DNA of 64,000 nt from an uncultured archaeon (GCA_964583285.1 CAZOVD010000002.1:2940-66939); one strand, 5' to 3'. Counted from the first letter of the stretch, positions 15,280 to 38,948 are shown. The notes: a model not told the origin generated them from the letters alone. Made by a program: numbers and translations.

Positions 15280-15512
15280 TTTCTACCACTCATCATTTTA
15301 CTTTTTTCTGCCTCTAATTGCATTTTCTTTTCTCTATTTTCTTGGTTTATTATCTTTCCAAAATAATACATTAATACTGCATCTTGGTCAGCTAATCCAC
15401 CATCTGCGGGCAGACAACGAAAGGTTTTACAGATATTATATTGTTCAAATATTGGAACAATATCTTCATCTGTAATTTCCCGTCCTCTCCTTACTGCCCA
15501 TTCTATTTTTCC
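15276..15512 (-). other. -1 frameshift extension of the tail chaperone (GT-like product)
   Basis: The -1 frame is open from the A5 run (15506-15510) to TGA 15276-15278, which overlaps the tape-measure ATG. It has no start codon or SD of its own. Confidence 0.6.
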
Positions 15513-15841
15513 ACAATCTCCTGCTTTGGATAATTAAATTCATCAATGAATTTATCTAATTCTTCTCCATCTTCTGCTTTTATATTATCCAAGTCTTCTT
15601 CTGTACATTTTTTTCCTTTTTGAAGCCAAGGAGCCTCTACAATACATCTCCAAGCACTTTCCATACTTGCAACAGCAGAATCAAATGTAGCAATTCTTTC
15701 TGCTACATTCTTATCATCAGCAATCGCCTGTGTTTTTAGAGCTTTGCTCTGTATTATTTTCTTTTCTCTATATGTTAATCTTCTTATAAGATATTTATCG
15801 CCACTTGGTGCAATAAATTCTTTAGTCTCTGTTTGAACCAT
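15503..15841 (-). CDS. tail assembly chaperone (G-like, frame 0 product)
   Basis: 112 aa acidic protein between the major tail and tape measure genes. Ends GAA AAA TAG. Confidence 0.6.
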   Translation of the reverse strand: MVQTETKEFIAPSGDKYLIRRLTYREKKIIQSKALKTQAIADDKNVAERIATFDSAVASMESAWRCIVEAPWLQKGKKCTEEDLDNIKAEDGEELDKFIDEFNYPKQEIVEK

Positions 15842-15856
15842 TTATATCTCCTCCAT

Positions 15857-16849
15857 TTAGAACGGGTCACTAGCATTTTCATCAAAATCTGAAAATCTTA
15901 CCCCTTCTGCATTAATATTATATGTTTCTTCAACTGCTGAACCATCTAAAGGTAATCTTTTATCTCTTGTTCCAAGTTTTGTTCTTAGAATTTGCCCATA
16001 AACTCCTCTATATGCTGCTGCAGTTGTTGTTTCACTATTATCTAACAAGAAATTTGTTTCAAATTCTGTTCCTGCATCAAACAATGAACCAAATTGTTGA
16101 TAATCACTATAATTAATTGTTATTGAACCATCAACTGTTCTAGTTCCTTGTAATATAGCATCAACTGTTCTAACACCATCTCCGCCACCTGCTGAAAATG
16201 TTCTTTTCATATTATTATTTACAGTAACAGATAAATTTGTTAGATTTGCAACTGATTCACTATTCACATTTATTGTCCCCTTATTATGGTACATATAAGG
16301 ACCTGTACATAATTGAGAATAACTTTCAAGAGAATCTTCTTGTATTGCTGTTTGCGCATATATATCTGCACTTGCTCTTAATGGTTCATTAAGTGATAAT
16401 GTCAAAGTTAATGAATTAACTTTACACCCTGTTAACTTAATTACATCATCTGTTCCACCGTTTTCTAATCCAAACATTAATGAAAAACTCTTAGATTTAT
16501 ATTCAACTGGCGCTGCACAAGTTGATGTACTATCTTCAGTTCCTCCCATATGTTTATAATTAGACCCATTTGTTACAGGAGATGTTGTATCATAATCTCC
16601 AAGTGCTGCAATTATAAATGCTGCATCTTGAACAAACCAATCTACTTTAGCTCCTACAACTTTACTTCCTAATAAAATTGCTCTTGTATTGATATTACCT
16701 GCGCTTGAAACAGGAACTAAAGCATTATCAGCAGTAAAAGTTGGGTCAGCTTGAACCTCACCAATACTTCTATAACCTGTTCCTGGGTCAGTACCGTAGG
16801 TAGATTCAATAGCATAAGCAATTCTTTGATTTACTCCACCTATTGCCAT
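15857..16849 (-). CDS. major tail protein candidate
   Basis: 330 aa, directly upstream of the chaperone pair (canonical order for long-tailed viruses). Confidence 0.5.
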   Translation of the reverse strand: MAIGGVNQRIAYAIESTYGTDPGTGYRSIGEVQADPTFTADNALVPVSSAGNINTRAILLGSKVVGAKVDWFVQDAAFIIAALGDYDTTSPVTNGSNYKHMGGTEDSTSTCAAPVEYKSKSFSLMFGLENGGTDDVIKLTGCKVNSLTLTLSLNEPLRASADIYAQTAIQEDSLESYSQLCTGPYMYHNKGTINVNSESVANLTNLSVTVNNNMKRTFSAGGGDGVRTVDAILQGTRTVDGSITINYSDYQQFGSLFDAGTEFETNFLLDNSETTTAAAYRGVYGQILRTKLGTRDKRLPLDGSAVEETYNINAEGVRFSDFDENASDPF

Positions 16850-16980
16850 TTTTTACCACCTTTTTTCTTTTTATAAGTTTGAGCCTTTGCTTCATCTTCA
16901 TATTCCTGTATAGGAACCTTTTCAGTTTTAGCAAGAGCTTTTTTCTTAATATAATTATTCCATTGGGAATCATCAACCAT
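16840..16980 (-). CDS. small lysine-rich ORF (46 aa)
   Basis: ATG 16980, 2 nt after the upstream stop (TAA 16983-16985). MVDDSQWNNYIKKK...GGKKWQ*. Below the track threshold. Confidence 0.3.
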   Translation of the reverse strand: MVDDSQWNNYIKKKALAKTEKVPIQEYEDEAKAQTYKKKKGGKKWQ

Positions 16981-16982
16981 TT

Positions 16983-17708
16983 TTAACACACTCCATTATA
17001 CCATTGTTGAAATTGGAAAGTTAAAGATATTTCTCTTCTATTTAATCCAAAATCACTATCAAAAGGTATATCTGATACATTCGTTACTCTAGCTTTAATT
17101 AAACCATGTATTGTATTATTGTATCTAATATATCTTATTTTTTGATAAATATCATTTTCTATAAAATCTAATAACTTATCACCTGTATATTTAAACGAAT
17201 TAATAGTATATGAATCTGTATTTCTTGCCCATATACTTACTCTTGTATCAAAATCAATAAATTCACCTTGGTCTCCAACACCAGAAGGAACACTCCCTCC
17301 ACCTGTTCTTAAAAAACCAATTCTTGGAAGTTTTTTATTGTCTTCCACATTTGGTGTTCCTGGGTATATCCAATTTTCCCCATAATAATAAGTTACAGAA
17401 ATATTATCTGTTCCCGAAGTAGGAGCAGTAACAAAAGTAATACTTGGTTTTTCATTACCTCGTCCAAAATCTAAAGAATATTCTCTATTTAATTTTTGTT
17501 CTGTACTTGAAATAGATACAGAATCAATATACATTAATGCTTGCATATAATTATCTGTTATATCATTAGGTGGTGTTAATTCAAATTTAGTAATTATACC
17601 ATTTCCAGAAAAAGTTTCAGTTCTTGAAGTTCCTCTATTTGCAGGGTCCTCTAAGTATTTTCTTAATTCATTAATAAGTGCTGTTTTAAATTTATTTGAA
17701 TCTACCAT
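16983..17708 (-). CDS. tail terminator / neck protein candidate
   Basis: ATG 17708 follows 'caaggtggcgaaagaca'. The track start 17738 is a TTG. Call is by position, between the gp10-like and major tail genes. Confidence 0.4.
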   Translation of the reverse strand: MVDSNKFKTALINELRKYLEDPANRGTSRTETFSGNGIITKFELTPPNDITDNYMQALMYIDSVSISSTEQKLNREYSLDFGRGNEKPSITFVTAPTSGTDNISVTYYYGENWIYPGTPNVEDNKKLPRIGFLRTGGGSVPSGVGDQGEFIDFDTRVSIWARNTDSYTINSFKYTGDKLLDFIENDIYQKIRYIRYNNTIHGLIKARVTNVSDIPFDSDFGLNRREISLTFQFQQWYNGVC

Positions 17709-17774
17709 TGTCTTTCGCCACCTTGCGAATAAATGCAATCACCACCTCGCAATTACATTCTTTAAAAATATTTA

Positions 17775-17800
17775 TTTTTTATCATTTATAAATATAATTT
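17775..17800 (-). promoter_or_regulatory. late-type promoter motif copy 2
   Basis: Exact 18-mer tcatttataaatataatt at 17782-17799, overlapping the stop of the upstream gene. Confidence 0.55.
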
Positions 17801-18200
17801 AAAGTTCTTTATTCTTTGCTTTATTTAGTGTTAAATTAATAGCTGGTTCAACAAATGGAGACGCTTTAATACCTTTAACTTTATGCCCTTTAGAAAACCG
17901 TCTTTGGCCTTCTTGTATCCAAGAAAGTGCTTTTTTATATTTAGGAAAAATAGAATGGTCTTTTGTTCCAAATTCAATATATGCCGCATATTCAGCTTCT
18001 ATATGTATTTGGTAATCATGTTTACCTATTTTTTTATAAGAAATAGAATTAATTAAATTACCAGTTTTAATATGGCCTTGCACTCTAAGATTATTTTTCA
18101 TTTCAGTAACCATTCGTTTAGTTAGTTCTTCCATAAATAAATCTAGCCAATCATCAAATACTTTTTGTATTTCATCAATATTGTTTATATCTTTTTCCAT
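17799..18200 (-). CDS. HK97 gp10-like head-tail joining protein
   Basis: 'IKTGNLINSISYKK...EAEYAAYIEFGT' matches the gp10-family signature (TGxLxxSI ... YAxYxEFGT). Confidence 0.65.
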   Translation of the reverse strand: MEKDINNIDEIQKVFDDWLDLFMEELTKRMVTEMKNNLRVQGHIKTGNLINSISYKKIGKHDYQIHIEAEYAAYIEFGTKDHSIFPKYKKALSWIQEGQRRFSKGHKVKGIKASPFVEPAINLTLNKAKNKEL

Positions 18201-25871: not shown

Positions 25872-26840
25872 CTAGCTTGCTGCCATTACTACACCAGCAA
25901 CAGCTAATACAGATTGTATTCCAATTCCGTATGATTGTACTGCAAGTATTTCAGTATCTAAACTTCCTGAAACTCTTCCATCTACAACTTCAACATCTGT
26001 TTCTTTTACAAATGTTCCAAGTTCATTTGAATCAACTATTAAAGTTGTTCCACTTGTTACTTGTGATGTTACAACAATCTTCATACCTCTAAAGTATTCA
26101 GCTGTTGGGAACACTCTTGCTACTGCACCAGCATCTGCTACAGCATTTGAAATAACACCTCTTGATAGTGCTTCTTTGAAATCTGTATCTTTACTTAGTG
26201 CTGCATAGTCAGCAGGATTAACTACCAAATGTGTTGGTTTATAATCATTACCTTCTATAATAGCAATAGCATCAATTAGTTTATCATAACTAATTCTTGT
26301 ACTTGCTCCACCTGTTGCAACTCTATTTGCATTTCCTGCAGTTACTACAGCTTCAATTCCTGATATGATATCAGAGTCAATTTTTCTTGCAAGTGCTTTA
26401 CCAGCTCTTTTAGCTTCTAAAGCAATCATTGAAGTCATTCCTCTTTTCATCATTTCCCAAGTAATTTTACTTGCAGCAACTTTCTTTGTTGGAGTTACAG
26501 TTATTGAACTATATCCTACAGATGTATAAGAAATACTTCCACCTTCTGAAACTTCAGCAGCAGTTATTCTTGCATCTTTTGGTAGTTTAATTGCACCTTT
26601 TCCTCCACCATTCATTAAGTCATCATTAACTTGTAATAGTTCTAGTCCTGTTAAATTTGGTTCAACAGCTTCTCTAATTATTGTAGCCAAAGCAGTTGTA
26701 TACAGAGCACTAGCATTACTTGTTGATATATCTTCTTTAAATCTAATTGATTCTGCGTAACCTTTAGAAATTGAGTCTTTTAATAGAGCTTTTCCTACAG
26801 CTTCACATAATCTTGTTCCACTTTCTTCAAAGTATGCCAT
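25872..26840 (-). CDS. major capsid protein (HK97 fold)
   Basis: 322 aa directly after the protease and scaffold genes. Composition and pattern fit the Phage_capsid family ('YKPTHLVVNPADYAAL'). Confidence 0.8.
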   Translation of the reverse strand: MAYFEESGTRLCEAVGKALLKDSISKGYAESIRFKEDISTSNASALYTTALATIIREAVEPNLTGLELLQVNDDLMNGGGKGAIKLPKDARITAAEVSEGGSISYTSVGYSSITVTPTKKVAASKITWEMMKRGMTSMIALEAKRAGKALARKIDSDIISGIEAVVTAGNANRVATGGASTRISYDKLIDAIAIIEGNDYKPTHLVVNPADYAALSKDTDFKEALSRGVISNAVADAGAVARVFPTAEYFRGMKIVVTSQVTSGTTLIVDSNELGTFVKETDVEVVDGRVSGSLDTEILAVQSYGIGIQSVLAVAGVVMAAS

Positions 26841-26841
26841 G

Positions 26842-27486
26842 TTAATACCTCCCTACATTTTTAGCATATTCTTTCATCATTTGTTCAATAGTTGCACCAT
26901 CTTCTTTCAAAGTTGACACACTACCAATAACAACTCTTCTTCCTAATAAACTTTCATTTAATTTTTGAACATTATTTAAAGGTTCTTTAGGAATTGCTTC
27001 TTCTGATTCTTCTTCTGTTTTATTTGTTGAATCTTGTGATATATCTTTATTTAATAGACCACCATCAACATCAGATTTAGCACCATAACTTGGGCCAGAT
27101 GGATTATCGCCTTCAAAACCAACAGCATCTTCTTCCATTACTTTAGGTTTTGTTGGGTCAATTTCTGGTTCATCATTAGCTTCTTCCATTTCTGTTGATT
27201 CTTCAGCTTCTAATTTAGAAAGTCTTGCTTCAATTCCTTCTAATTTAGCCATAACTTGATTCAAAACATCAGAATTATCATTTACTTCTTCTGTTAAAGC
27301 TTTTGCTTTGTCCAAAGGTTCAGTTGGTTCAGCATCACTAGCTGGTGCATCTACTTTTGATACTACAGCAGGTTCAGCCATATCTTTTTTAAGAATTCCA
27401 CCTTCATTTGTATCGGCTTGTTCTTTCTTAACTTCTTCTTCGTCTTCAACTACTTGCTCAACAAAATATTTTTTTGTCTTAGCCAT
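26842..27486 (-). CDS. scaffolding protein
   Basis: 214 aa, highly acidic with a coiled coil ('LSKLEAEESTEMEEANDE'). Lies between the protease and capsid genes. Confidence 0.65.
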   Translation of the reverse strand: MAKTKKYFVEQVVEDEEEVKKEQADTNEGGILKKDMAEPAVVSKVDAPASDAEPTEPLDKAKALTEEVNDNSDVLNQVMAKLEGIEARLSKLEAEESTEMEEANDEPEIDPTKPKVMEEDAVGFEGDNPSGPSYGAKSDVDGGLLNKDISQDSTNKTEEESEEAIPKEPLNNVQKLNESLLGRRVVIGSVSTLKEDGATIEQMMKEYAKNVGRY

Positions 27487-27501: not shown

Positions 27502-27520
27502 TCATTTTATAAATATAATT
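27502..27520 (-). promoter_or_regulatory. late-type motif variant (one extra T)
   Basis: tcattttataaatataatt overlaps the protease stop. It is only about 20 nt from ATG 27486, which has a strong SD, so function is uncertain. Confidence 0.3.
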
Positions 27521-28400
27521 ATACTTGACATGCTTTAATCACTTCAAGTATTTCCTCTAATTCTTTTTTTGTTGGTTCAACATCTTTTCTAATTGTTTTT
27601 GTTAATGCTGGGCCACCAACTAATGTTCCTGCATTTATTGTTGATATATCTTCTTTTTTTTGTTCATCTTCTGTTTTAATTTCTTCTTTTATTATTTCAT
27701 CTTTTACTGGTTCATCTTCAACTTTTATTTCTTCTTCAACACCATCATCTAAAACATAATTAATATTTCCACCTTCTCTTGTTTTAGTATGAACTTTTAA
27801 TTTATTCTTTTTAATAATATTTTCAAAAAAATCTTCATCTTTCTTTTCAATAGACGCTGTAACTAATTTTTCTTTCCCTATATGAGATAGTTTTAAAGCT
27901 TCTGCCATATTAATTGTTGAATCAGCATAACCAGGAATAGTAACAATACTAATTTCTGCCCAATCATTTGGAAACGCTCTTGTATATTGTTTTCCATCAA
28001 TTGATTCTTCGTGTGAAACTTCATCAACTAATGCTTGAATTGAAACATTATTAATATCTCCTCTTTTAATTTTTCTAACTAAATCTGTTTCTTCAGGGTC
28101 AATATTTCCTCTATATTTTAAAATTGGTCCTTCCATCCATACTTTTTCAATATGCCCCACTGGCAATTTTGCTTCATCATGGTTTAAAAGCATTGGTCTT
28201 CCTTCAAGTTTTTTATGTGAATTCATTACAGAATTATAATCATACAAAATCTTATTTCTTGTAGGTTTAGTTGTATCAAGTGCATCTCCTTCAATTATAA
28301 CACCATCAACTTTATTAGTTTCTGGATTAATACTTTCTTTTAAAACATAACCATTAACTGGCTGAAAAACAGTTTCTTTAAAAACAATTCTATTGGACAT
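27519..28400 (-). CDS. prohead maturation protease (HK97 gp4-like)
   Basis: 'RPMLLNHDEAKLPVGHIEKVW' resembles the prohead-protease signature. Position is portal-protease-scaffold-capsid. Confidence 0.7.
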   Translation of the reverse strand: MSNRIVFKETVFQPVNGYVLKESINPETNKVDGVIIEGDALDTTKPTRNKILYDYNSVMNSHKKLEGRPMLLNHDEAKLPVGHIEKVWMEGPILKYRGNIDPEETDLVRKIKRGDINNVSIQALVDEVSHEESIDGKQYTRAFPNDWAEISIVTIPGYADSTINMAEALKLSHIGKEKLVTASIEKKDEDFFENIIKKNKLKVHTKTREGGNINYVLDDGVEEEIKVEDEPVKDEIIKEEIKTEDEQKKEDISTINAGTLVGGPALTKTIRKDVEPTKKELEEILEVIKACQV

Positions 28401-28698: not shown

Positions 28699-28959
28699 TT
28701 ATAATGATTTCTTTAAATCATTTAAATTATTATATATCTTAACCTTGTTATTTATGATGACGCCGTAGGTATTTGATTTATCATCAAAATATATATCCTT
28801 ATTTCCTATTTTATCAATTATTTTATAATTCATTGAAAATTCTTCCTTGTTCCTATTTAAAATTTTAAGAATTAACCAAGAAACAAATAATATCTTAGCA
28901 ATACTCCATGAAGGATTATTGCTCCTTATAAATGCTTTAATTGTTTCAATATTAACCAT
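28699..28959 (-). CDS. small membrane-anchored protein
   Basis: TM segment 'WSIAKILFVSWLILKIL'. One-base overlap with the portal stop (TAATG junction; shared base 28959). Confidence 0.45.
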   Translation of the reverse strand: MVNIETIKAFIRSNNPSWSIAKILFVSWLILKILNRNKEEFSMNYKIIDKIGNKDIYFDDKSNTYGVIINNKVKIYNNLNDLKKSL

Positions 28960-30398
28960 TATTCATCACTTTCCATATTTTTTAGTAATTCAAGAGCTCT
29001 TCTAGCAATTTGCTCATTTGGAGTAAATTGTTGAGTTTGAGGATTTTGCACTATTTGTGGTTGTTCTTCTTTTTGTCCTAATTGACTAAAATCTTTATAG
29101 AAAATATTTCCTTCTGGTAATGTAGATTCTCCAATAGCTTTTCTCATTTCATTATAAGTAATTTGGTTATTTAACCATTTTTCTCTAATTTCATTATTTC
29201 TCTCTTGTGGTGTTCTAAAGTCAATATCTCCAAATCTTATCTCGCATTTTTGTAAATACTGTAATTTTTTCTGATATGGTTTAATTATAGCATCTGTTAA
29301 TAATTTACTCCATAATCTTCTCTTTGTTTCAAGTCTAAGCATGAATGCAATTAAGATTTGTTCAGCAGTGGCTCTGTTTACATCCATTCCATATCCAATT
29401 AAAAACTCTGGTGCTAAACCAGAAATAATCTTTCTTCTAACATGGTCAGTAAATCCATCCATTGAAACATCTTTACCACTATAAGATAAATCTTCTAATT
29501 TTACTTCTCTATCAAGAACAGCATTTTCGTCATCTTCAAGCCCTTCAAAATAAGTGGCTAAATCAACTATATCATCCTGCGAAAACTTTTCACCTTCTTT
29601 TGGCATAATAAGTTTTTTTGGAACAGCTTTATATTTAGCAATAATTCCAGAAGCTTTTTCAATCCTCTTTAAAATTTCATGGTCATCAAGAACTGATGCA
29701 ATAAAAGAACGACCATATAAACCATCATCTCCTTTTCCCCATCTAAAATGAATTAATTTATCTTTATGAATAGGGATACCAAATATCTTTAATTCTTTAT
29801 ATCCTGAAAATGTATATGATAAAGTATAAAATCTTGGTTGTGGGTATCCAGGAGCACTTCTAAAACCTTGGGGTACTTCTTGAATATAATATTCATCTAA
29901 ATTTGGAACTGTTATTAAATTACCATTAATATCCGTTTTAGTAGTAGTTAGAGGATTTCCAAATGGGTCAGTATTTAAATAAATTCTACTTGAATCTGAA
30001 ATGGCATATAAGGCAATAGGAAGACCATCATTGCTATATTCTATTTCTAAATAACCATTACCGGTTTTAATAGCTTGTTCAACTGCTTCATGAACTTCTG
30101 AAAATAAATCTGGTTTAATTGTATCAATTATTTTTTGAAAAAACTGTTCTGTTTTATTATCTTGTGAATAAACAACTAATTCACGACCCATTGTAAAATC
30201 CGTAAAATTATCTACTGCTGAAGAAATAAGACCATTATTATTAAAAGCATTTCTGCATCTTACTTGTAATTCAATAGGATTATCCCAATATTCGCCAAAT
30301 AAATCTGTATTATTCTTTTTTAATTTACCTTTTACAGTTCTAGATTTTTCTTTGAATACCATTGGGCTATTTCCAAAAATTTCTTTTAATGATTTCAT
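28959..30398 (-). CDS. portal protein
   Basis: 479 aa. Called from size and its position upstream of the protease-scaffold-capsid genes. N-terminus MKSLKE. Confidence 0.7.
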   Translation of the reverse strand: MKSLKEIFGNSPMVFKEKSRTVKGKLKKNNTDLFGEYWDNPIELQVRCRNAFNNNGLISSAVDNFTDFTMGRELVVYSQDNKTEQFFQKIIDTIKPDLFSEVHEAVEQAIKTGNGYLEIEYSNDGLPIALYAISDSSRIYLNTDPFGNPLTTTKTDINGNLITVPNLDEYYIQEVPQGFRSAPGYPQPRFYTLSYTFSGYKELKIFGIPIHKDKLIHFRWGKGDDGLYGRSFIASVLDDHEILKRIEKASGIIAKYKAVPKKLIMPKEGEKFSQDDIVDLATYFEGLEDDENAVLDREVKLEDLSYSGKDVSMDGFTDHVRRKIISGLAPEFLIGYGMDVNRATAEQILIAFMLRLETKRRLWSKLLTDAIIKPYQKKLQYLQKCEIRFGDIDFRTPQERNNEIREKWLNNQITYNEMRKAIGESTLPEGNIFYKDFSQLGQKEEQPQIVQNPQTQQFTPNEQIARRALELLKNMESDE

Positions 30399-30400
30399 AT

Positions 30401-30664
30401 CTATACACTCTCCAAACTACATTTACAATTTTTATGAAGTGGAGGTCTATCAACAGGGCTAAATGCTCCTGTTGGGTCAGTAAACTTTTCTCCAACTGCT
30501 CTCACTTGGCCACCCATCGCTTTACAAGATTTACAACTATTTTCACTTGGATGAAAAACCCATCTTCTTTTAGCTTTGCTACCAGACTTTCCTCTACCAT
30601 ATTTCTCTTTAAAATTATTAGCAACATATTCTTTAAGTAATTCTTTTAAAGATTTTTTATTCAT
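30401..30664 (-). CDS. minor head protein, Mu F / SPP1 gp7-like C-terminal motif
   Basis: 'VDRPPLHKNCKCSL' matches the conserved (P)PxHxNCRC motif. N-terminus MNKKSLKE. Confidence 0.5.
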   Translation of the reverse strand: MNKKSLKELLKEYVANNFKEKYGRGKSGSKAKRRWVFHPSENSCKSCKAMGGQVRAVGEKFTDPTGAFSPVDRPPLHKNCKCSLESV

Positions 30665-31125
30665 AATGATGAGACACCTTCTGTTTGTTCGCCAAGTTCT
30701 TTATCTATAATTAATTTCTGGTCACCGTTTAATTGATGATAAGATTTTCCATATTTCTTAAATGATATAACATCTTGTGGTTCTAAAATATTTTCTTTTT
30801 CTTCAAGTTCTGCAAGTTTCTTTTTAATTCCATCAGGATTAATAATTACTAATTCATCATCTTCAAGAGTTATAAATTTACCATCACCAAAAACTACTTT
30901 ATTTAATTTCTTTACTTGAACTTCGTGAACAATTCCGATGTCTCCTTTTTTATTCTTAACAATATCTCCAGCAACATATTCTTTAAGAGATTCCTTTCCT
31001 TTCATTTTTTGAAAAATTCCCATAATATAGTCCCATTCCTCTTCATGACCTTGGTCCGCTGCAACTTGTTTAGCTTTATTCCAAAGTTTTTCATCTTCTG
31101 CTGTTTTAACTACATTTGCTGGCAT
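30661..31125 (-). CDS. SLKE-motif head-associated protein
   Basis: 154 aa with an internal 'GKESLKEY'. Shares repeat modules with the 487-aa neighbour. Confidence 0.45.
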   Translation of the reverse strand: MPANVVKTAEDEKLWNKAKQVAADQGHEEEWDYIMGIFQKMKGKESLKEYVAGDIVKNKKGDIGIVHEVQVKKLNKVVFGDGKFITLEDDELVIINPDGIKKKLAELEEKENILEPQDVISFKKYGKSYHQLNGDQKLIIDKELGEQTEGVSSL

Positions 31126-32589
31126 TTATAAACCCATCCATAAATCTAACATTACTTCATCGTCAACTTGTTTCTTTTGTTGGTCATTTAATTCATCATA
31201 TGATTTATTAAACATTTTTTTAGCAGTTAATTCAAGACTTCTTCCTTCTTCTTTTAAAGATTCTTTTAATTCTAATTCATTTGCCTTAAACCATCCAATT
31301 AATCCTGTTTGTGGTTGTGCTGTCACTCTAATTTCATCGTTTTGAATTTGATAAACATATCCAACTTTTCCGCTAGGTGTAATTACTTTGTCTCCACCAC
31401 CAATCCATTTACCATTTTTATCAACAATCTTTTTAGCATAAGAGCCTTCTTTTAAAGATTCTTTTTTACTAATATTTCTTGAACCACATTTAGAACATTT
31501 ATCATTATCATTGCCTTGAAATTGGTTTCCACAATCTAAACATTTTTGAATTGGATTTCTTTCAAAATCATCTTCATTATATTCTTTTTTATATCCTTCG
31601 CCCAATTCCTTTTGTAAGTCATTCAATTCAACTTGAACCTCTTTCTTTTCATCAGGAGTACATTGAGCATAATTTTTCTTAAATAAGAATTGTGCCATTT
31701 CATCTGGTGTTCTTGCATACTTTTCTGTTTTTTGCGGGTCAGCAACTAATATTTTCCATTCTTCATCTGGGCCGTCACCTTCAGCTTCTTTAGGATATAA
31801 TGTTTCTCCTTCTTCCTTATCATAATAATTTGGGTTTTCTTCTAAATGGTCCATTACTAAATTTTTAATAGCTTCATCATCTAAAGTTGGGTGTTCTGAT
31901 TTTTCTATATCAAAACCTTTAGAAAAATTATCATCAAGTGCTTCCACTTTAAAAGTATTTTCATCATCTTGTGAAATAACAGCTTCAATTCCTTTTAATT
32001 TTAATTCAGCATCTATTTTTGCTTTATTCTCTGGAGTACAATCAGCATATCTTTTTTTATCAAACATTGAATCTGCTAATTGGTCGCGTGCTTGAGTTAA
32101 AGAAATAGTTGCTTCACTTCTTAATTGTTTTTGCATTAAAGAATCAAACTTATATTGGTCATCAGAATTTAAATCATCATATTTTTTCCCACCAAAATAT
32201 TTTTTTGATATTATATCTTCTGCAGAACTTTCTTTATAACTTTCAGCATTTCTAGCCATATCTATTGCATCGCCAGAGTCTAAATTATATAAAGATACTA
32301 ATTGTTTAACAATTTCTTGTTCAGATTTTCCTTGCTTTTTTAATACTGTTGCTGTTTGCATAGCAGCATTAAATTGAGCTTGATTTACTTCTTTTAAACT
32401 TTCTTTTGTTGTTCTTTTTTTTGCTTCATCATACTTCTTTTGAAGTATATCTCTTTTATTCTTCCAAGCGTCATAATCTTCTGACTTTGGATTTAAAATT
32501 GATAATAATTCATCAATTTTATCTATTTCTGCTTTTATCTGAAGAGCCTCATCATAATCCCCAGATACTAATTCTTTTAAACTAACCAT
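31126..32589 (-). CDS. modular SLKE-motif protein with zinc ribbon (polyprotein-like)
   Basis: SLKE at aa 3-6, 64-67, 378-381 and 443-446. Four 'KxYxxxxxxxKxxxDxE' modules. Zinc ribbon 'CLDCGN...CSKCGS'. Confidence 0.5.
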   Translation of the reverse strand: MVSLKELVSGDYDEALQIKAEIDKIDELLSILNPKSEDYDAWKNKRDILQKKYDEAKKRTTKESLKEVNQAQFNAAMQTATVLKKQGKSEQEIVKQLVSLYNLDSGDAIDMARNAESYKESSAEDIISKKYFGGKKYDDLNSDDQYKFDSLMQKQLRSEATISLTQARDQLADSMFDKKRYADCTPENKAKIDAELKLKGIEAVISQDDENTFKVEALDDNFSKGFDIEKSEHPTLDDEAIKNLVMDHLEENPNYYDKEEGETLYPKEAEGDGPDEEWKILVADPQKTEKYARTPDEMAQFLFKKNYAQCTPDEKKEVQVELNDLQKELGEGYKKEYNEDDFERNPIQKCLDCGNQFQGNDNDKCSKCGSRNISKKESLKEGSYAKKIVDKNGKWIGGGDKVITPSGKVGYVYQIQNDEIRVTAQPQTGLIGWFKANELELKESLKEEGRSLELTAKKMFNKSYDELNDQQKKQVDDEVMLDLWMGL

Positions 32590-32595
32590 CTATAA

Positions 32596-32802
32596 TCACC
32601 TTACATTTCTATTTATTTCTCCTAAAAGTTGTTTAATTTTAAAGTAAGTATTTGGGTCTTTCGTCCTATCTATTTCAATAGCTAATTGTTTTAATTCATC
32701 AGCTTGCTGTGCTAATTGATTAGGATTAGCAACCCCAGCTTCTTTAAATGTAAAATTATTTTTAAGATATTCTCTCATATATTCTTTTAATCGTTTATTC
32801 AT
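32596..32802 (-). CDS. hypothetical protein (N-terminus MNKRLKEY)
   Basis: 68 aa. Its N-terminus is similar to that of 30401-30664. Confidence 0.45.
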   Translation of the reverse strand: MNKRLKEYMREYLKNNFTFKEAGVANPNQLAQQADELKQLAIEIDRTKDPNTYFKIKQLLGEINRNVR

Positions 32803-34483: not shown

Positions 34484-34934
34484 TTTTGGAGTTAGTTCCA
34501 TTATTTATTTCATCATTAAATATCTCAATAGCTTCATAAATAGAATATTCTTTATTTTTCTTTTTAGACATATTATCAATATAATTTTTTATACCTTGAA
34601 TATCAAAAAAGTCTGAAACAATACCGGATTTAATTAGTTTCTTTACAAACGCACTATAAGTAATAAAGGAATTAAAATCTTCACTAAAATGTGTTTTCCA
34701 AATAGTATATCCTATTTTTCGCCCATATGATTTAGGTAAAGTACTTTTTGACCTAAAAACTTTACGCCTAACAAAATCAGTTTTTCTATTTAAAGAAAAA
34801 TCTAAATCATCTATCCTTTGTTGTCTTAATTCATCATTTCTACATTTTCTACAAATCTTTTTTGCTATTAAAACAGAATTAACTTTGGCACCGCATCTTC
34901 TACAAATCTTCTTCTCCACGTTGTTTCGCCTCAT
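34473..34934 (-). CDS. zinc-ribbon protein
   Basis: N-terminal 'CRRCGAKV...CRKCRN'; 153 aa. Confidence 0.45.
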   Translation of the reverse strand: MRRNNVEKKICRRCGAKVNSVLIAKKICRKCRNDELRQQRIDDLDFSLNRKTDFVRRKVFRSKSTLPKSYGRKIGYTIWKTHFSEDFNSFITYSAFVKKLIKSGIVSDFFDIQGIKNYIDNMSKKKNKEYSIYEAIEIFNDEINNGTNSKTYI

Positions 34935-35799
34935 AAACTTTTTTCATAAAATCAGCATACTCCATAATGCAATCTTCTATCTTAAATTCATTTAAAATAA
35001 TCTGTCTATTTTGTTCTCTTAACCACTTATTATTCCTACTATCATCAATAACAGAAAACATTGTTTGTTCACAAAAAAGTGATTGTGGTGGCAATATTTC
35101 TTTAGCACCTCCACCAGCAATAGAAGCTACAGGCATACCACATGCCATAATTTCAAGTAATAAATTAGGCATACAATTTTGATAATCTAGATGCACAACA
35201 ATATTGCATTTATTTAAAAGCGCAAATAATTCATCTGCGGTAGAAAATTTTTCTATAAATACAATATTGTCTGCGCCATAATGCTCTGTTAAAGATTTAA
35301 TAGCTTCATATTCAAATGGGAGAAGACTTTTTTTAATAATACCAATTTTATCTCCAGAATGATTAATCTTTCTTGGATTATAAAAATTAGTATCAACACC
35401 ATTAAAAATAATTTTTGAAGCAAAATGCTCTTGTTTACTAACATACTTCTTGTATCCTTTCTTACTATAATATGATTGATATATTATACCATCAGCTTCA
35501 TCATAATGCCACTTTAAAGATTCATTCATACTAGCATAGTTATTTTCATAACCTTTCACATATGGTTTAAAAACACCATTTACTCTATTAATAAAAACAC
35601 CATTATTCATTCTACAAGCGAGTACTTCATCATTTGTAAGCCAGTTATTTAAACCAAAAACAATATCTGCAATTCTTGGATTATCAACAACTTCAAAATA
35701 TTTTCTAATTTCTCTATTAAAATATTGCATAAAGGTTTTTGGGCCACCTGCAAGTTTTTCTATTCTATCAACTGGGTAGTATAATTTGTATTTTTTCAT
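34900..35799 (-). CDS. glycosyltransferase (GT-B, family 1/4-like)
   Basis: C-terminal 'NLLLEIMACGMPVASIAGGGAKEIL' fits the GT1 nucleotide-sugar-binding motif. Confidence 0.6.
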   Translation of the reverse strand: MKKYKLYYPVDRIEKLAGGPKTFMQYFNREIRKYFEVVDNPRIADIVFGLNNWLTNDEVLACRMNNGVFINRVNGVFKPYVKGYENNYASMNESLKWHYDEADGIIYQSYYSKKGYKKYVSKQEHFASKIIFNGVDTNFYNPRKINHSGDKIGIIKKSLLPFEYEAIKSLTEHYGADNIVFIEKFSTADELFALLNKCNIVVHLDYQNCMPNLLLEIMACGMPVASIAGGGAKEILPPQSLFCEQTMFSVIDDSRNNKWLREQNRQIILNEFKIEDCIMEYADFMKKVYEAKQRGEEDL

Positions 35800-36140
35800 A
35801 ATATTCTCCTCATTCTTTTTCTTGTCATACTTAAATATTTATTCTTATCTTTTAAAGTAGCAAAAAATTTCTTTTCGCATAAAGAACATTTTAAATACTC
35901 TACTTTTTGCTTACGAGCTCTTAACGTTATTTCTAACGAACATTGATGTGTATTATGCCAACCTTTTGCGCAATATTTTTTTATTTTTTGTAAATAAAAA
36001 AAATATTCTGTCTTCTGTTCAATAATAAATAAGCCTGATTTATATTTAAAACATTCAAAAGCGAAGATTAAATCCCATTTAAAATTTCGGAATAGGCTAA
36101 TTAATCTTCGCTTCTTACTATCCGATTTCGTAAGTTTCAT
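35796..36140 (-). CDS. Cys-rich hypothetical protein
   Basis: 114 aa, basic, with 'CSLCEKK'; ATGA-coupled. Confidence 0.4.
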   Translation of the reverse strand: MKLTKSDSKKRRLISLFRNFKWDLIFAFECFKYKSGLFIIEQKTEYFFYLQKIKKYCAKGWHNTHQCSLEITLRARKQKVEYLKCSLCEKKFFATLKDKNKYLSMTRKRMRRIL

Positions 36141-36466
36141 ATTTTATCAACAACCTTTTTTGCTTTATCTATTTTTTTATTATTTTGTTTTTGAACCCAG
36201 TTTTGATATTGTTTTAATAATTTGTCTCTTTTAAATTTATAATCTTTTTTAGCAATGCAATTATTTTGTTTTAATAGAATAAGAGCAATAGCTTTATTTT
36301 TTAAATATTGCGGGTGCTCACACAAAAAAGAATATGCAGAATATTCTGCCAAATCATATAAGTCATTACATTTATCGCATCTGCCTTTATATTTAGATTG
36401 TGTTCCGCAATAACAATACACCCATCTTTCAACGGCTTGTGTCTTAAAAATATCCCAAATACTCAT
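36137..36466 (-). CDS. Cys-rich hypothetical protein
   Basis: 'YCYCGTQSKYKGRCDKCND' is zinc-binding-like. Confidence 0.4.
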   Translation of the reverse strand: MSIWDIFKTQAVERWVYCYCGTQSKYKGRCDKCNDLYDLAEYSAYSFLCEHPQYLKNKAIALILLKQNNCIAKKDYKFKRDKLLKQYQNWVQKQNNKKIDKAKKVVDKI

Positions 36467-36651
36467 TTCTTCACCTTCAATTTTTTCATAGTTGATTTTT
36501 TTATTCCTCTATCAATTAATCCTTTATATCCAAACAATTTATGTTTTATAATGTCTAATATATCTTTCCACTCATATTTAAAATAAGTAGGAACCATTAA
36601 TGTTCTTCTTTTTGTATAATATGATTTAGATTCCTTATCAATTATTTTCAT
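36463..36651 (-). CDS. hypothetical protein
   Basis: 62 aa, basic, ATGA-coupled. Confidence 0.4.
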   Translation of the reverse strand: MKIIDKESKSYYTKRRTLMVPTYFKYEWKDILDIIKHKLFGYKGLIDRGIKKSTMKKLKVKK

Positions 36652-36656
36652 TTTTC

Positions 36657-36863
36657 TTACCCCTCATAATCTAACATTTCTTCATTAATTTCAAAACCAT
36701 TTTTAGCATGATAAATTAATGTCTTAACTTCTTCCTGAGTTAATCTACAAATTACATCACCTAATTCCAAAAAATATTCACCATTAAAACAATGTTTCCA
36801 AACATGGAAATATGTTGGCTCACCTGACTTTTTTCCACTTAATATTGTACATTTTACACTCAT
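36657..36863 (-). CDS. hypothetical protein
   Basis: 68 aa, ATGA overlap upstream. Confidence 0.4.
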   Translation of the reverse strand: MSVKCTILSGKKSGEPTYFHVWKHCFNGEYFLELGDVICRLTQEEVKTLIYHAKNGFEINEEMLDYEG

Positions 36864-37360
36864 TTCTTAATCACTTCCTTTTTATAAATACAAATATTTG
36901 TGTCTGGGTTCTTTGGGTTTCCTTCTTTATAATGTTCTACCCTTTTTAATTCCTTAAATAAATAATCAATAGCAAACTCTGTCATCCGCCAATAATCTTT
37001 TGGATAATCATGATAAATATGATGAAAAGGTACACTAAAAAATAATATTCCATTATCTTCTAATAAATTAACTACGTTTTTTGCAGCAGTAAAAATATCA
37101 TCCACATGTTCAAAAGTTTCAGTACAAATAATACAATCAAATTTTTCTTGTGGTAATGTTTCAACTTTAGTAATATCTCCTTTTTGGTCCACATATGGTC
37201 CATTAACCAAATCAATTGCCAAATATTTTTGTGTTTTAATAAACGTTCTTGGGTCAGCAAATCTTCCTTGATGACAGTCATATGCACCAATATTAAGTGT
37301 TGATTTAAAAGAATGCTTGCTAGCAAATCTATATAAATGATACATTATAAATTCTTTCAC
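36860..37360 (-). CDS. class I SAM-dependent methyltransferase
   Basis: 'YLAIDL' (motif I-like) and 'FDCIICTETFEHVDD...ILFFSVP', typical of the Methyltransf_11 type. Confidence 0.55.
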   Translation of the reverse strand: MKEFIMYHLYRFASKHSFKSTLNIGAYDCHQGRFADPRTFIKTQKYLAIDLVNGPYVDQKGDITKVETLPQEKFDCIICTETFEHVDDIFTAAKNVVNLLEDNGILFFSVPFHHIYHDYPKDYWRMTEFAIDYLFKELKRVEHYKEGNPKNPDTNICIYKKEVIKK

Positions 37361-37707
37361 TCGCTCACCTTTTTAAATGCTAATTTAATTTCTTCTTGCG
37401 CTATCAATCTAATATAATTTCTTAAATTTTCTAATGTAAGAGCACCTTCATTATAAGGTAAATTATTTTCTTTAAAAATCTTCTCCAATTTATCAATATT
37501 TTTATTTAATCGTTTGATGTCTTTAAAAATAGAATTAGTCACTTGTAATTGTTTTTTGTTTAATTGTTTTTTATGTTCTTTATAATCAAAACAACCAAAA
37601 TATTCTTGTGATTTATATTTATTACAAACCTTTTCTAATAAATCCCATTTTTCATGAACTTGTTTTTTCAATTTATTATGCTCATCAATTAATTCTAACA
37701 TTCCCAT
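37357..37707 (-). CDS. hypothetical coiled-coil protein
   Basis: 116 aa with SD 'tggaagtgattaaATG'. Confidence 0.45.
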   Translation of the reverse strand: MGMLELIDEHNKLKKQVHEKWDLLEKVCNKYKSQEYFGCFDYKEHKKQLNKKQLQVTNSIFKDIKRLNKNIDKLEKIFKENNLPYNEGALTLENLRNYIRLIAQEEIKLAFKKVSE

Positions 37708-37736
37708 TTAATCACTTCCATAATAAAATATTTAAT

Positions 37737-37758
37737 AAAAATATTTTTAAATATATTG
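37737..37758 (-). promoter_or_regulatory. early-type promoter motif
   Basis: The - strand reads CAATATATTTAAAAATATTTTT, about 42 nt upstream of ATG 37707. Confidence 0.55.
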
Positions 37759-37759
37759 T

Positions 37760-37921
37760 CTATTCTTCTAAATTATTTTTACAATTTGAACATACTGCTA
37801 CAACTAATCCTTCTGCATCAATTGAAAGAGTTACATCAGAACCATCTTCAATATCTTCTGCACAAAGATAGCATTTTGGTACTTCTTCTTTTAATAATTT
37901 AATTCCTTTAATTGCTATCAT
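37760..37921 (-). CDS. zinc-ribbon mini-protein (53 aa)
   Basis: MIAIKG...CYLCAED...CSNCKNNLEE. ATGA overlap upstream. Below the track threshold. Confidence 0.4.
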   Translation of the reverse strand: MIAIKGIKLLKEEVPKCYLCAEDIEDGSDVTLSIDAEGLVVAVCSNCKNNLEE

Positions 37922-38082
37922 TCCTTATCACCATCCAATGTACAATTTTTATGCACTAAAAATAAAGCTCCTTTATTATTTGGAACAGCTCTAACTTCTG
38001 TACCAATACTTATATATTTCTTGCAAATAAAACATTTACATTTTGTTTGATTCTTTTGTAATGTTACAAGTAAATTACCCAT
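37918..38082 (-). CDS. Cys-rich mini-protein (54 aa)
   Basis: MGNLLVTLQKNQTKCKCFICKKY...HKNCTLDG. Start overlaps the upstream stop (TGATG). Confidence 0.4.
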   Translation of the reverse strand: MGNLLVTLQKNQTKCKCFICKKYISIGTEVRAVPNNKGALFLVHKNCTLDGDKE

Positions 38083-38948
38083 CACTTCACCTCAATTAAT
38101 AATCCTGTATCTAAAGCATTCTTTGTTATCTCATCTATATAATCAGGCAATCTTTTTACTTGACCTTTCATAATAAAGAACTTTGGTTCTTGCCCGTTAC
38201 CCCAGTAATCATTTCTGCACTTTACAAATGTTGTCTTTTCAAGTTTTATAAAACCTTTTTTATAAGGAGTCTGGTCTTCAGTCCTAAGATGCTTTGTCCA
38301 TAATCTTGGAAGAACATAAACATTTATACCTGCTTTTTTCAAATCAATATACCAATATGTATCTGGAGCAGCATTTAGAGCTTCGTGAATATTTTCTTCT
38401 TTCTTTAATCTAAAAGGTATTTTATCAAGTACAGTTCTATTAATTAATACACAACCATGACCAACTCCCCAAACTTGCTGAGGATTATCTGGCATTAATT
38501 CAATGTCTTTTGCATTTAGTACTTGCTCTGTTTTATAATCATGCACACAAACTACACCAAGATTAGCATCAAGTAAATATGGAGCACCAACTACATCTAA
38601 TTTAGTCTCAACTAATTTTTCCAAAGTTTCTGGCTGTGGTATTTGGTCAGCTTCAAGAAACCAAGCACAATCATATTGAATATTGCTAGCAATATATTTT
38701 CGGGCCACGTTATATGCTTCTAATAATACTTCATTAATATTTGGGCCAGATTTAATATTTACTACTCCACCATACTTTAAAAGTTTTCCTCTAAAATCTC
38801 CATGCTCTTCTGGAGAACTATCTATAAATAATATATCAAATTCTTTATAAGTCTGTTTTTTTAGAGCAGCAATATATTCCAATAAGTATTTCTCCATCTT
38901 ATAGTATGTTGCACATACTACTAATACTTTTGGAATACTACTTGCCAA
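38082..38948 (-). CDS. glycosyltransferase-like protein (GT-A/family 2-like)
   Basis: N-terminal 'KVLVVCATYYKMEKYLLEYIAALKKQTYKEFDILFIDSS' resembles a GT2 Rossmann start; 'FLEADQ' is DxD-like. Confidence 0.45.
   Translation of the reverse strand: MASSIPKVLVVCATYYKMEKYLLEYIAALKKQTYKEFDILFIDSSPEEHGDFRGKLLKYGGVVNIKSGPNINEVLLEAYNVARKYIASNIQYDCAWFLEADQIPQPETLEKLVETKLDVVGAPYLLDANLGVVCVHDYKTEQVLNAKDIELMPDNPQQVWGVGHGCVLINRTVLDKIPFRLKKEENIHEALNAAPDTYWYIDLKKAGINVYVLPRLWTKHLRTEDQTPYKKGFIKLEKTTFVKCRNDYWGNGQEPKFFIMKGQVKRLPDYIDEITKNALDTGLLIEVK

Follow-up and report, generated by a model that had tools for sequence, protein, structure and literature searches.

The prohead protease gp21 of T4 (MEROPS S77) cuts after L/I-x-E and removes capsid-targeting leaders of 10 aa from the internal proteins IPI-III, and the T4 scaffold gp22 receives multiple cuts. 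In HK97, the C-terminal part of the protease targets it to the procapsid. Chains that combine such a protease with a further head protein are common. HK97 gp4 reportedly cleaves its capsid protein after a lysine (K), and in staphylococcal phage 80alpha a host L27-specific protease, Prp, is said to remove the leaders of the capsid and scaffold proteins. To our knowledge, a glutamate (E) rule is documented solely for T4/phiKZ-type S77 enzymes, no E-S-Phi-K-E code is known for HK97 cleavage sites, and MuF toxins are not known to have a motif that recurs at their junctions. The protease of phiKZ, 201phi2-1 and SPN3US (gp175/gp245) cuts many head and ejection proteins after S/A/G-x-E or A-x-E (PMC10052503, PMC5694885); in SPN3US, gp245 processes nine head proteins after A-x-E, with the portal and gp245 itself among them (PMC10052503). 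The P1 Dar proteins carry an N-terminal packaging signal, which comprises 30 residues in DarB (PMC9024508).

A search of the literature revealed no characterised S78 protease with ES(L/F)KE-type specificity. Here we analysed a DNA stretch of 64,000 nucleotides from an uncultured archaeon (the window, in its full length) and its relatives. Peptides of the form (E)S[LFY][KR]E or ES(L/F)KE mark the starts and the internal module joints of head proteins in this archaeal tailed virus and its relatives, and this motif is probably the recognition and cleavage code of the lineage's own S78 prohead protease, which would have a cargo polyprotein as its substrate; in its loosest form the code may read hydrophobic-[K/R]-E.

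Motif copies in the head genes

The genes and motif copies of the head block are the following.

32596..32802, minus strand: 68-aa protein, starts MNKRLKE (RLKE at nt 32782-32793)
31126..32589, minus strand: 487-aa modular 'beads-on-a-string' protein, starts MVSLKE
32572-32583, minus strand: SLKE, aa 3-6 of the 487-aa protein
32389-32403, minus strand: ESLKE, aa 63-67 of the 487-aa protein
32230-32244, minus strand: ESYKE, aa 116-120 of the 487-aa protein
32113-32127, minus strand: QLRSE, aa 155-159 of the 487-aa protein
31447-31461, minus strand: ESLKE, aa 377-381 of the 487-aa protein
31264..31446, minus strand: KOW/SH3-like small beta-barrel module, ~aa 382-442 of the 487-aa protein, ESLKE on either side
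31249-31263, minus strand: ESLKE, aa 443-447 of the 487-aa protein
30661..31125, minus strand: 154-aa protein (ESLKE aa 45-49, nt 30979-30993)
30401..30664, minus strand: 87-aa protein, starts MNKKSLKE-LLKE (MNKKSLKE nt 30641-30652; motif stretch nt 30629-30652)
28959..30398, minus strand: portal protein, 479 aa, starts MKSLKE (motif nt 30381-30392)
27519..28400, minus strand: S78 (HK97-type) prohead protease, 293 aa (Pfam Peptidase_S78)
28374-28385, minus strand: VFKE, aa 6-9 of the protease
27621-27659, minus strand: C-terminal segment KKEDISTINAGTL, aa 248-260 of the protease, resembling the mature N-terminus of the capsid protein
26842..27486, minus strand: scaffold-like acidic protein, 214 aa (STLKE aa 191-195, nt 26902-26916)
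25872..26840, minus strand: major capsid protein (MCP), HK97-fold, 322 aa, with a 36-aa leader

The N-termini MNKRLKE, MVSLKE, MNKKSLKE and MKSLKE listed by a first, sequence-only reading of this DNA are all present on the minus strand, as is its GKESLKEY in the 154-aa protein (aa 43-50). Two of the internal SLKE copies that it placed in the 487-aa protein lie exactly where given (aa 64-67 and 378-381), while the third, given as 443-446, was off by one and lies at 444-447. Two further copies in this protein had been overlooked, ESYKE (aa 116-120) and the degenerate QLRSE (aa 155-159).

The window proteome (99 ORFs, 20,038 aa) contains seven SLKE sequences, all of them inside four adjacent head genes (1,207 aa) and none in the rest of the window, compared to ~0.64 expected from composition for the whole window; these copies are partly non-independent, as some were made by a module and its motif duplicating together. 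[LFYIM][KR]E occurs within the first 10 residues of 7 of the 99 ORFs, five of which lie in the 10-gene head block, the protease (MSNRIVFKE) among them. Counting S[LFY][KR]E in 33 family members revealed 43 copies versus 1.7 in shuffles, a number that, like all counts over homologues, is inflated by shared ancestry. The recurrence is real and far above chance. The tail genes of L017-L019 contain no copy. The codons vary between the copies in the window, and relatives of higher GC content use alternative codons at every motif position. Because its codons vary freely, the motif is, judged by codon usage, selected as a peptide.

The N-terminal ~20 aa of the 68-aa protein are similar to those of the 87-aa protein. 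In the latter, the segment after the motif is a putative C-terminal part of a MuF/SPP1 gp7 domain, with PPLHKNCKC (signature PPLH.NC.C); the match to PF04233 (Phage_Mu_F) spans only profile positions 62-111 of 112 and, with 25.7 bits, stays below the cut-off of 29.6, and head-morphogenesis families in PHROGs match at 1.7e-8 to 2e-4. The portal protein matches PF04860 with 39.7 bits (cut-off 39.1) and phrog_9232 at 8.6e-12. Portal N-termini read M-x-x-[LIF]-[KR]-E in 33 of 37 homologues, and in portal-MuF fusions the motif is found at the joint. The 154-aa protein consists of an N-terminal helical module, ESLKE, a beta-rich module and a helical 'F.K.Y..L...K..ID.EL' module, in this order.

The leader of the capsid protein ends with ESIRFKE (aa 30-36, nt 26733-26753), followed by the conserved DISTSNASALYTT. 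In 96 homologues this boundary reads [F/L/T/Y]-[K/R]-E|D-[V/I] and lies 29-61 aa from the N-terminus; the density of [LFYM][KR]E is 3.74 per 100 aa in their leaders versus 0.127 in the mature part, and many leaders carry ES[LF]KE, LKE and FRE|D in tandem. STLKE in the scaffold is located ~20 aa from the C-terminus, and the scaffolds of most lineages display [LF]-[KRTS]-E ~20-25 aa from theirs. In the window as in L001, L003, L012 and L013, the portal gene is followed in turn by two small ORFs and the genes for protease, scaffold and MCP.

The S78 protease

The HK97-type prohead protease assigned to 27519-28400 by the sequence-only reading was confirmed by a match to PF04586 (Peptidase_S78) of 30.3 bits (cut-off 21, E 5.5e-7). 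PHROG head maturation protease families match as well, including fused 'major head and protease' proteins. Searches in Pfam and PHROGs gave S78/HK97-type matches alone and none to the gp21/S77 family; nor did these matches reveal a second protease in the head block. A sequence search for a solved relative found none. Histidine (H) 74 and serine (S) 120, the latter in the motif NVSIQ, are invariant in six homologues (alignment A5) and by analogy form the putative catalytic pair.

An S78 protease gene is present beside motif-bearing genes at every locus examined. In three relatives, P0005 (869 aa), L019:6800-9559 (919 aa) and L015:7766-9328 (520 aa), the S78 domain comes first and a string of modules continues the chain; the modules are of the same kinds and are joined by ES[FL]KE or [ILF]KE.

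Modules and linkers of the 487-aa protein

In an AF2 model of the full-length 487-aa protein, pLDDT falls below 50 at residues 1-11, 60-68, 118-122, 372-386 and 444-450, which coincide with motif copies, and the modules between the copies score 70-83. Residues 160-376 comprise several modules with no canonical copy. When the barrel was modelled in isolation, pLDDT reached 86-94 in the core and ~50 in the motif flanks; its best Foldseek matches are the Spt5 KOW and UvrD Tudor domains, with E-values of at least 0.012. Homologues of the barrel also occur as stand-alone ORFs of 56-66 aa (P0011, P0013), and their methionine aligns with the residue directly after the motif (alignment A3). The confidence dips, the stand-alone homologues and the shuffling of modules between relatives mark the modules as autonomous units, with a short conserved site in the flexible linkers between them. 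The motif positions and the modules also fit the earlier suggestion of a polyprotein of about five pieces, for which we predict cuts giving residues 7-67, 68-120, 121-381 (or 121-159 and 160-381), 382-447 and 448-487.

Conservation in relatives and exchange between strains

Even relatives with only 31% portal identity retain the motif in the form (E)S[LFY][KR]E. L001 (57% portal identity) displays MKTISLKE, ESFRE, ESLRE (two copies), ESLKE (three copies) and the portal N-terminus MKTFRE; L012/P0004 has ESYKE, ESFKE (two copies) and ESLKE; and L003 (31% portal identity, 43% GC) has ESFKE, and PEGFREG at its portal-MuF joint. The motif is also conserved in L013 and L019. Relatives have the MuF domain in one chain with the portal and with additional modules. 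Relatives further revealed an amphipathic long form of 15 residues, ESLSRLDKLHESVCKE and M[KR]YTEKL..LH.E, the latter at three consecutive N-termini of L003. In appearance, this form is closer to a docking peptide of helical structure than to a plain scissile site.

Module order and content vary among all relatives, with the joints kept. Strain L016, whose flanks share 97-98.5% nucleotide identity with the window, has two replaced cassettes in the 487-aa gene, and each of the four breakpoints is flush with a motif copy. The motif is thus also a point of cassette exchange between strains, which the sequence-only reading had not foreseen.

Discussion

The suggestion that the motif is a cleavage or targeting signal is supported by every in-silico prediction that was tested: the peptide is conserved in distant relatives, its sites are placed in linkers, at the end of the capsid leader, at portal N-termini and portal-MuF joints and near the scaffold C-terminus, and in relatives the protease is fused in cis to motif-bounded module strings. 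The cut at the motif, its position, the enzyme and the function of the modules are inferred. In the proposed mechanism, the protease would enter the procapsid, tethered by its C-terminal copy of the mature capsid N-terminus, and would there cut after the motif glutamate. The cut would remove the 29-61-aa leader of the capsid protein, free the C-terminal capsid-binding end of the scaffold and clip the short tags off the N-termini of portal, MuF fragment, 68-aa protein and the protease itself. The 487-aa and 154-aa proteins would be cut to free modules of 40-220 aa (helical hairpins, the KOW/SH3-like barrel, a Zn-ribbon, a DUF5661-like domain and 'F.K.Y..L' helices), which would remain in the head, either as internal proteins or as proteins for ejection. 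N-terminal motif copies may also bring the tagged proteins to the protease, and hence into the capsid.

Some observations argue against cleavage, among them the lack of a canonical copy between residues 160 and 376, the docking-like long form, the lysine site reported for HK97 gp4 and a Glu rule documented solely for S77 enzymes. Residues 60-68 of the 487-aa protein are modelled within a long low-confidence helix and not as an extended loop, and the look-alike segment at the protease C-terminus reads QKKE|D, in which the hydrophobic residue is absent. The putative N-terminal propeptides of 6-8 residues would be unusually short, which likewise speaks against a cut.

The present observations are compatible with a motif that is cut or with one that is bound yet left uncut. 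In the latter case the motif, chiefly in its 15-residue form, would be a short linear motif for docking or capsid targeting, with the protease, the scaffold or the capsid interior as its binding partner, and tagged proteins would be loaded into the procapsid with their chains intact. The amphipathic long form, the placement of the motif right at the start of proteins that have nothing else in common, and the precedents of the T4 capsid-targeting sequence and the 30-residue signal of P1 DarB (PMC9024508) point in this direction. We nevertheless regard docking alone as unlikely: one targeting tag per chain is enough, yet five or six internal joints carry the motif; its positions between the variable leader and the conserved body of the capsid protein and before the C-terminal end of the scaffold are classical cleavage positions; and the protease-module fusions require release of the enzyme. 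Just as improbable, in our estimate, is a structural hinge kept as a recombination joint and recognised by no protein, at which in-frame cassette exchange occurs or survives. The flush breakpoints in L016 and the reshuffling of modules between constant joints fit such a hinge, but the same exchange is expected if viable swaps must preserve cleavage sites. Microhomology cannot explain a peptide that is kept despite free synonymous change in genomes of 28-43% GC, and a hinge leaves unexplained both the motif in non-modular proteins (capsid leader, portal N-termini, scaffold) and its absence from modular tail fibres.

If the motif is a processing signal, the enzyme could be a host (archaeal) or another viral protease; the 80alpha Prp case would be a precedent. 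This is very unlikely given the S78 gene accompanying the motif genes at every locus, its fusion to motif-bounded modules in three relatives and the head block in which no second protease was seen. Hardly credible is a reading at the nucleotide level, in which T_TTA_AAA is a programmed -1 frameshift site yielding nested truncated products, or the recurrence reflects AT-rich composition. The slippery-type heptamer does occur in 5 of 8 window copies, with -1 frame stops 3-7 codons downstream, but it is found in none of 11 copies of L003, L012, L013 and L019, and in L016 copy 64 has changed TTA to TTG with the peptide unchanged; these relatives contradict a frameshift. Composition predicts 0.64 SLKE in the window, against the clustered seven.

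Beyond cleavage by the S78 protease, it is conceivable, though doubtful, that archaeal tailed viruses of a widespread and so far overlooked group use the motif as a plug-and-play address for cargo of the capsid, with the protease acting as receptor and then as scissors. An S78 protease tethered by its N-arm copy would recruit any E-S-Phi-K-E chain and then free the modules, and cassettes could be swapped at the joints, as in the two swaps between the window and L016, because each module has the same joint. If true, these viruses would deliver a fast-evolving set of small head-internal proteins into the host together with the DNA, and the KOW/SH3-like modules would be possible nucleic-acid binders among them.

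Comparison with known systems

The system resembles that of T4 in its short motif ending in glutamate with a hydrophobic residue two positions earlier, in the spread of this motif over capsid leader, scaffold, protease and internal proteins, and in the very short N-terminal leaders on cargo. It differs in a motif that is longer and stricter (E-S-Phi-K/R-E), in cargo made of unrelated modules strung in one chain, and in an archaeal host, and its processing is predicted from sequence. The sequence-only reading had noted that L-K-E fits the T4 rule; as the protease is of the HK97-type S78 and not the T4-type S77 family, the L/I-x-E rule holds as an analogy and not as membership of a T4-type system. 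With the giant phages phiKZ, 201phi2-1 and SPN3US it would share a lineage-specific variant of a Glu-ending code and the processing of many head proteins, portal and protease included, with propeptides cut at several sites; in contrast, the giant phages have enzymes of the T4-like kind, most of the propeptides there are long (111-254 aa), and the substrates do not consist of strung modules that have a site at each joint.

HK97 gp4, the type member of Peptidase S78, belongs to the same protease family by Pfam, whereas HK97 lacks a separate scaffold and a cargo polyprotein, and the C-terminal part of the protease contains a copy of the mature capsid N-terminus in the window's lineage. In the polymorphic toxins of temperate phages that belong to the MuF/SPP1 gp7 type, a portal-associated MuF domain likewise bears passenger domains, which vary and are transported within the capsid; in the window, however, a separate fragment of 87 aa holds the putative MuF part, and the variable modules are tiny and non-enzymatic. 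The arrangement also recalls the polyproteins of RNA viruses and retroviruses, in which folded units are split by a conserved short site and, as in some relatives, the protease is part of the same chain, although here the virus is a dsDNA tailed virus and only accessory head proteins, not the replication machinery, are so organised. Taken by analogy, the system of the window may work like that of T4 without being an S77 member.

Organisation of the head-gene locus

Head-gene features of the window
32596-32802, minus strand: 68-aa protein, first in transcription order
31126-32589, minus strand: 487-aa protein, second in transcription order
30661-31125, minus strand: 154-aa protein, third in transcription order
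30401-30664, minus strand: 87-aa protein with the C-terminal half of a MuF/SPP1-gp7 domain
28959-30398, minus strand: portal, followed in transcription order by two small ORFs
27519-28400, minus strand: Peptidase_S78 (S78) prohead protease, after the two small ORFs
26842-27486, minus strand: acidic scaffold-like protein
25872-26840, minus strand: HK97-fold major capsid protein (MCP)

The window belongs to a ~69-kb viral contig that looks like a complete or near-complete tailed-virus genome. The genome bin in which this contig is placed (G000; ~1 Mb, 69 contigs, 27% GC) is archaeal, since it encodes TATA-binding proteins (two genes, both on contig 16). Searches of Pfam and PHROGs revealed no significant match for the 487-, 154- or 68-aa proteins. 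A cluster of glycosyltransferase, methyltransferase, sulfotransferase and APS-kinase genes (34900-38948) adjoins the capsid gene, as in relatives; similar clusters lie by the capsid gene in two metagenomic loci (L013:11137-15513; L018:1345-6882 and 14424-18046), which suggests that glycan modification of the virion or host surface is a trait of this virus group.

Copies of the motif in the window

All N-termini and internal copies listed in the sequence-only reading were found in the sequence; its sole slip concerns the third internal copy of the 487-aa protein, which was placed at aa 443-446 and lies at aa 444-447. Two additional copies were detected in this protein, at aa 116-120 (ESYKE) and at aa 155-159 (QLRSE, a degenerate form). 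In the window proteome (99 ORFs, 20,038 aa) all seven SLKE peptides fall within four head genes, compared with about 0.64 expected from composition for the entire window, and 33 family proteins contain 43 copies of S[LFY][KR]E versus 1.7 in shuffles. These counts rule out chance or composition as the source of the motif. Its loosest form, hydrophobic-[K/R]-E, is found in the first ten residues of seven ORFs, five of them in the ten-gene head block; the S78 protease itself is among these N-terminal carriers (MSNRIVFKE).

The Ser and Leu codons differ between the window copies, and alternative codons were found at every motif position across lineages (GAA/GAG; six Ser codons; TTA/TTG/CTG/CTC/CTT/TTT/TTC; AAA/AAG), which shows that it is the motif peptide that is under selection. 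Because the motif codons vary freely, a DNA-level repeat or recombination signal was ruled out as the sole cause. Programmed -1 frameshifting was considered because five of the eight window copies contain the heptamer T_TTA_AAA; it was ruled out, since the heptamer is present in none of 11 motif copies of higher-GC relatives and a synonymous change destroys one heptamer in strain L016. An origin by fusion of small genes each starting with M-x-SLKE was also ruled out, because the internal copies have K-E and not Met before the Ser and an in-frame ATG is absent. A SUMO-like Psi-K-x-E consensus was dropped because SLKEE is the only copy that fits it.

Conservation in metagenomic relatives

Searches of an annotated phage collection (tblastn with the portal and the 487-aa protein) identified no cultured relative; metagenomic relatives do match. 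In the locus L001, with a 57% identical portal, a 649-aa protein begins with MKTISLKE and contains ESFRE, two copies of ESLRE and three of ESLKE, and the portal begins with MKTFRE. Four more distant loci (L003-L006; portal 31% identical, 43% GC) encode a portal-MuF fusion with PEGFREG at the joint and a 589-aa protein whose beta-rich module is flanked by SESFKKG and KKESFKEF; M[K/R]YTEKL..LH.E begins three consecutive ORFs there. The 530-aa protein of L012 contains ESYKE, two copies of ESFKE, ESVKKE and ESLKE, and in the same locus the portal begins with MKIRE and a 152-aa protein with MVELKE. Scanning 1.84 billion representatives in full with HMMER revealed 31 relatives, each a mosaic of the same small modules, a number that like the other homologue counts is inflated by shared descent. 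Some relatives show a 15-residue long form of the motif (ESLSRLDKLHESVCKE or KESYIEKLRNMSE), written in general as ESY.EKL..L.E. A literature search for ESLKE, ESFKE and DUF5661 found no paper.

Cassette exchange in a closely related strain

In strain L016, whose flanks are 97.2-98.5% identical to the window at the nucleotide level, the homologue of the 31126-32589 gene (L016:2542-4311) encodes 589 instead of 487 aa. BLAST and inspection showed two replaced cassettes and three conserved blocks. Identity stops right after ESLKE (aa 63-67), returns after QLRSE in the window and ESLRLNE in L016, stops a second time after KESL[K/N]E (aa 376-381), before returning at [K/R]ES[L/F]KE (aa 442-447). 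Since identity breaks at motif copies, the motif is a joint for module gain and loss. Module turnover within this gene is very recent, the genomes being otherwise near-identical.

Modules of the 487-aa protein

The modular proteins were aligned globally with MAFFT; this alignment, poor because the modules are shuffled, served solely as AlphaFold2 input and to view shared blocks. The full-length model had low overall confidence (mean pLDDT 53). Apart from the poorly modelled middle (about residues 154-361), it contains six short low-confidence segments (1-11, 60-68, 118-122, 372-386, 444-450 and 484-487); five are exactly the five motif copies and the remaining one is the last four residues. 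The modules between motif copies reach pLDDT 70-83. Residues 160-376 comprise several modules with no canonical copy.

The module enclosed by the last two copies (about aa 382-442) was predicted from an alignment of 15 sequences to be a small five-stranded beta-barrel, with pLDDT 86-94 in the core and ~50 in the flanks. Foldseek returned generic KOW/Tudor/SH3 similarity only (best E 0.012), so no function can be assigned to it; speculatively, the KOW/SH3-like fold of the model hints at nucleic-acid binding. The motif directly precedes the barrel in 13 of 15 family members, and two stand-alone barrel ORFs (P0011 and P0013, 56-66 aa) start at the residue that follows the Glu of the motif.

Further recurring elements were observed. 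A helical motif of ~30 aa, F.KK.Y..L....K..(I/V)D.E(L), is present in five copies in the 487-aa protein (aa 127-156, 172-200, 300-330 and 455-483) and the 154-aa protein (aa 118-146), and in relatives too, for example as AKKMYNQHWDNLSTSQQDAIYKKLG in L001 and L003. The stretch EKSEHPTLDDEAIKNLVMDHLEENPNYYDKE (487-aa protein, aa ~220-265, window about 31800-31930) resembles DUF5661 (PF18905), an assignment reached only indirectly through relatives; there the domain is attached to the protease in L012, L015 and P0005 and in other cases to unrelated proteins, one of which (P0029) has a minimal CRISPR polymerase domain. A four-Cys zinc ribbon, CLDCGNQF...CSKCGS (aa 345-372, window about 31480-31560), lies directly before an ESLKE copy, and the L019 protease fusion contains many such ribbons. 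The 154-aa protein begins with the module MPANVVKTAEDEKLWNKAKQVAADQGHEEEWDYIMGIFQKMKG (aa 1-44, given as window 30661-30800), which is N-terminal in several family members (P0003, P0010, P0018 and P0028; MP.W.KD.K.WDKAK...YKKMGG) and always followed by the junction motif.

The motif in capsid, portal, scaffold and tail proteins

The sequence [F/L/T/Y]-[K/R]-E|D-[V/I]-[S/T]-T marks a boundary 29-61 residues from the N-terminus in 96 capsid homologues (56-73% identical), with variable length and sequence before it and high conservation after it. The density of hydrophobic-[K/R]-E is 3.74 per 100 aa in the capsid leaders versus 0.127 in the mature parts, the latter close to the compositional expectation. 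Many leaders contain ES[LF]KE, LKE and FRE|D in tandem; the window version is compact (ESIRFKE|D), with Asp37 as the predicted first residue of the mature protein. The portal N-terminus reads M-x-x-[L/I/F]-[K/R]-E in 33 of 37 homologues, and portal-MuF fusions are joined by PESFRESIG, SERFKEIVT or LETLKEDLK. In most lineages [L/F]-[K/R/T/S]-E lies ~20-25 residues before the scaffold C-terminus (STLKE in the window). The tail genes of three relatives contain no copy. In L015, a relative that shares a bin with an Asgard (Hodarchaeales) genome, the portal gene (L015:2858-6286) encodes 1142 aa including intein/homing-endonuclease-type domains (PF14890, PF07591, DUF559).

Association of the motif with the S78 protease

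In three relatives a single chain carries the S78 domain together with a series of the same modules, with ES[FL]KE or [ILF]KE at the joints.

Protease-module fusions in relatives
P0005: 869 aa
L019:6800-9559: 919 aa
L015:7766-9328: 520 aa

All compared proteases share His74 and Ser120. The activity of S78 enzymes may depend on procapsid assembly. The C-terminal part of the window protease (aa 248-260, window 27621-27659) resembles the mature N-terminus of the capsid protein (KKEDISTINAGTL in the protease, KEDISTSNASAL in the MCP). The same holds for L013 (8460-9323; LSTANASALATTALAKTIR in the protease, ISTSNASALYTTALATVIR in the MCP), and the protease of L015:7766-9328 too carries a copy of the capsid segment. 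As judged from these sequences, the segment may plausibly tether the protease into the procapsid, so that it co-assembles with the capsid protein. Some of the 'KED' similarity therefore reflects homology or mimicry and not necessarily a cleavage site. A PDB sequence search gave nothing for the protease and only remote matches for the capsid protein (8qpq, E 2e-4), and no S78 specificity of this kind was found documented in the literature.

Discussion

The motif is under peptide-level selection, lies in flexible linkers and is restricted to head-interior proteins. It co-occurs with the S78 protease, sometimes fused to it, and is placed at classical tailed-phage protease sites: in the leader of the capsid protein, at the end of the scaffold, in the portal and in the protease itself. 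For these reasons the motif is probably the recognition and cleavage code of the virus's S78 protease, which is the best explanation. The sequence-only reading had proposed a protease-cleavage or capsid-targeting signal, and this is supported to the limit of what sequence analysis can provide. Cuts after the Glu (P1, with Leu as P3) would divide the 487-aa protein into residues 7-67, 68-120, 121-159, 160-381, 382-447 and 448-487, with predicted sizes of about 7, 6, 4.5, 25, 7.5 and 4.5 kDa, or 30 kDa for an undivided 121-381. Weak points of the cleavage reading are the very short six-residue propeptides, the modules at 160-376 without a canonical copy and the low-confidence full-length model.

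An uncut docking or capsid-targeting peptide would account for the N-terminal positions and for the long form with its helical character, but not for the numerous internal copies or the boundary in the capsid leader, and we regard it as unlikely. The L016 cassettes would also be expected if the motif were a pure linker retained as a recombination joint, an explanation made improbable by the free synonymous variation and by the presence of the motif in non-modular proteins. Cleavage by a host or other protease appears very improbable.

If the cleavage code is right, the mature ends of capsid, portal, scaffold and protease become predictable across a large group of uncultured viruses, represented by at least 100 capsid homologues in metagenomic data, and several large hypothetical proteins would be defined sets of small head-internal proteins. 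Module-cassette exchange at protease sites would be a route of fast evolution. The short tag M-x-S-L-K-E would then be a candidate for directing foreign proteins into capsid-like particles; MKSLKE and MNKKSLKELLKE are candidate forms of such a targeting signal.

Sequence-coded proteolytic head maturation is textbook knowledge for T4 and giant phages. To our knowledge HK97-type (S78) proteases offer few comparable cases and archaeal tailed viruses none; literature searches on protease cleavage in archaeal viruses and on the specificity of T5 pb11 found nothing usable. The system described here would belong to a known category, that of head-protease cleavage codes combined with a cargo polyprotein, the protease here being HK97-type, the virus group archaeal and cassette exchange demonstrable at the sites. 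The proposed code follows the same logic as T4, with gp21, L/I-x-E sites and 10-residue capsid-targeting leaders, and as the head-protease codes of giant phages; in SPN3US, gp245 processes nine head proteins by cleavage after A-x-E, its own chain and the portal among them (PMC10052503). The enzyme family, however, differs from the T4 and giant-phage proteases, and the proposed system is therefore best described as working like these systems and not as a member of them.
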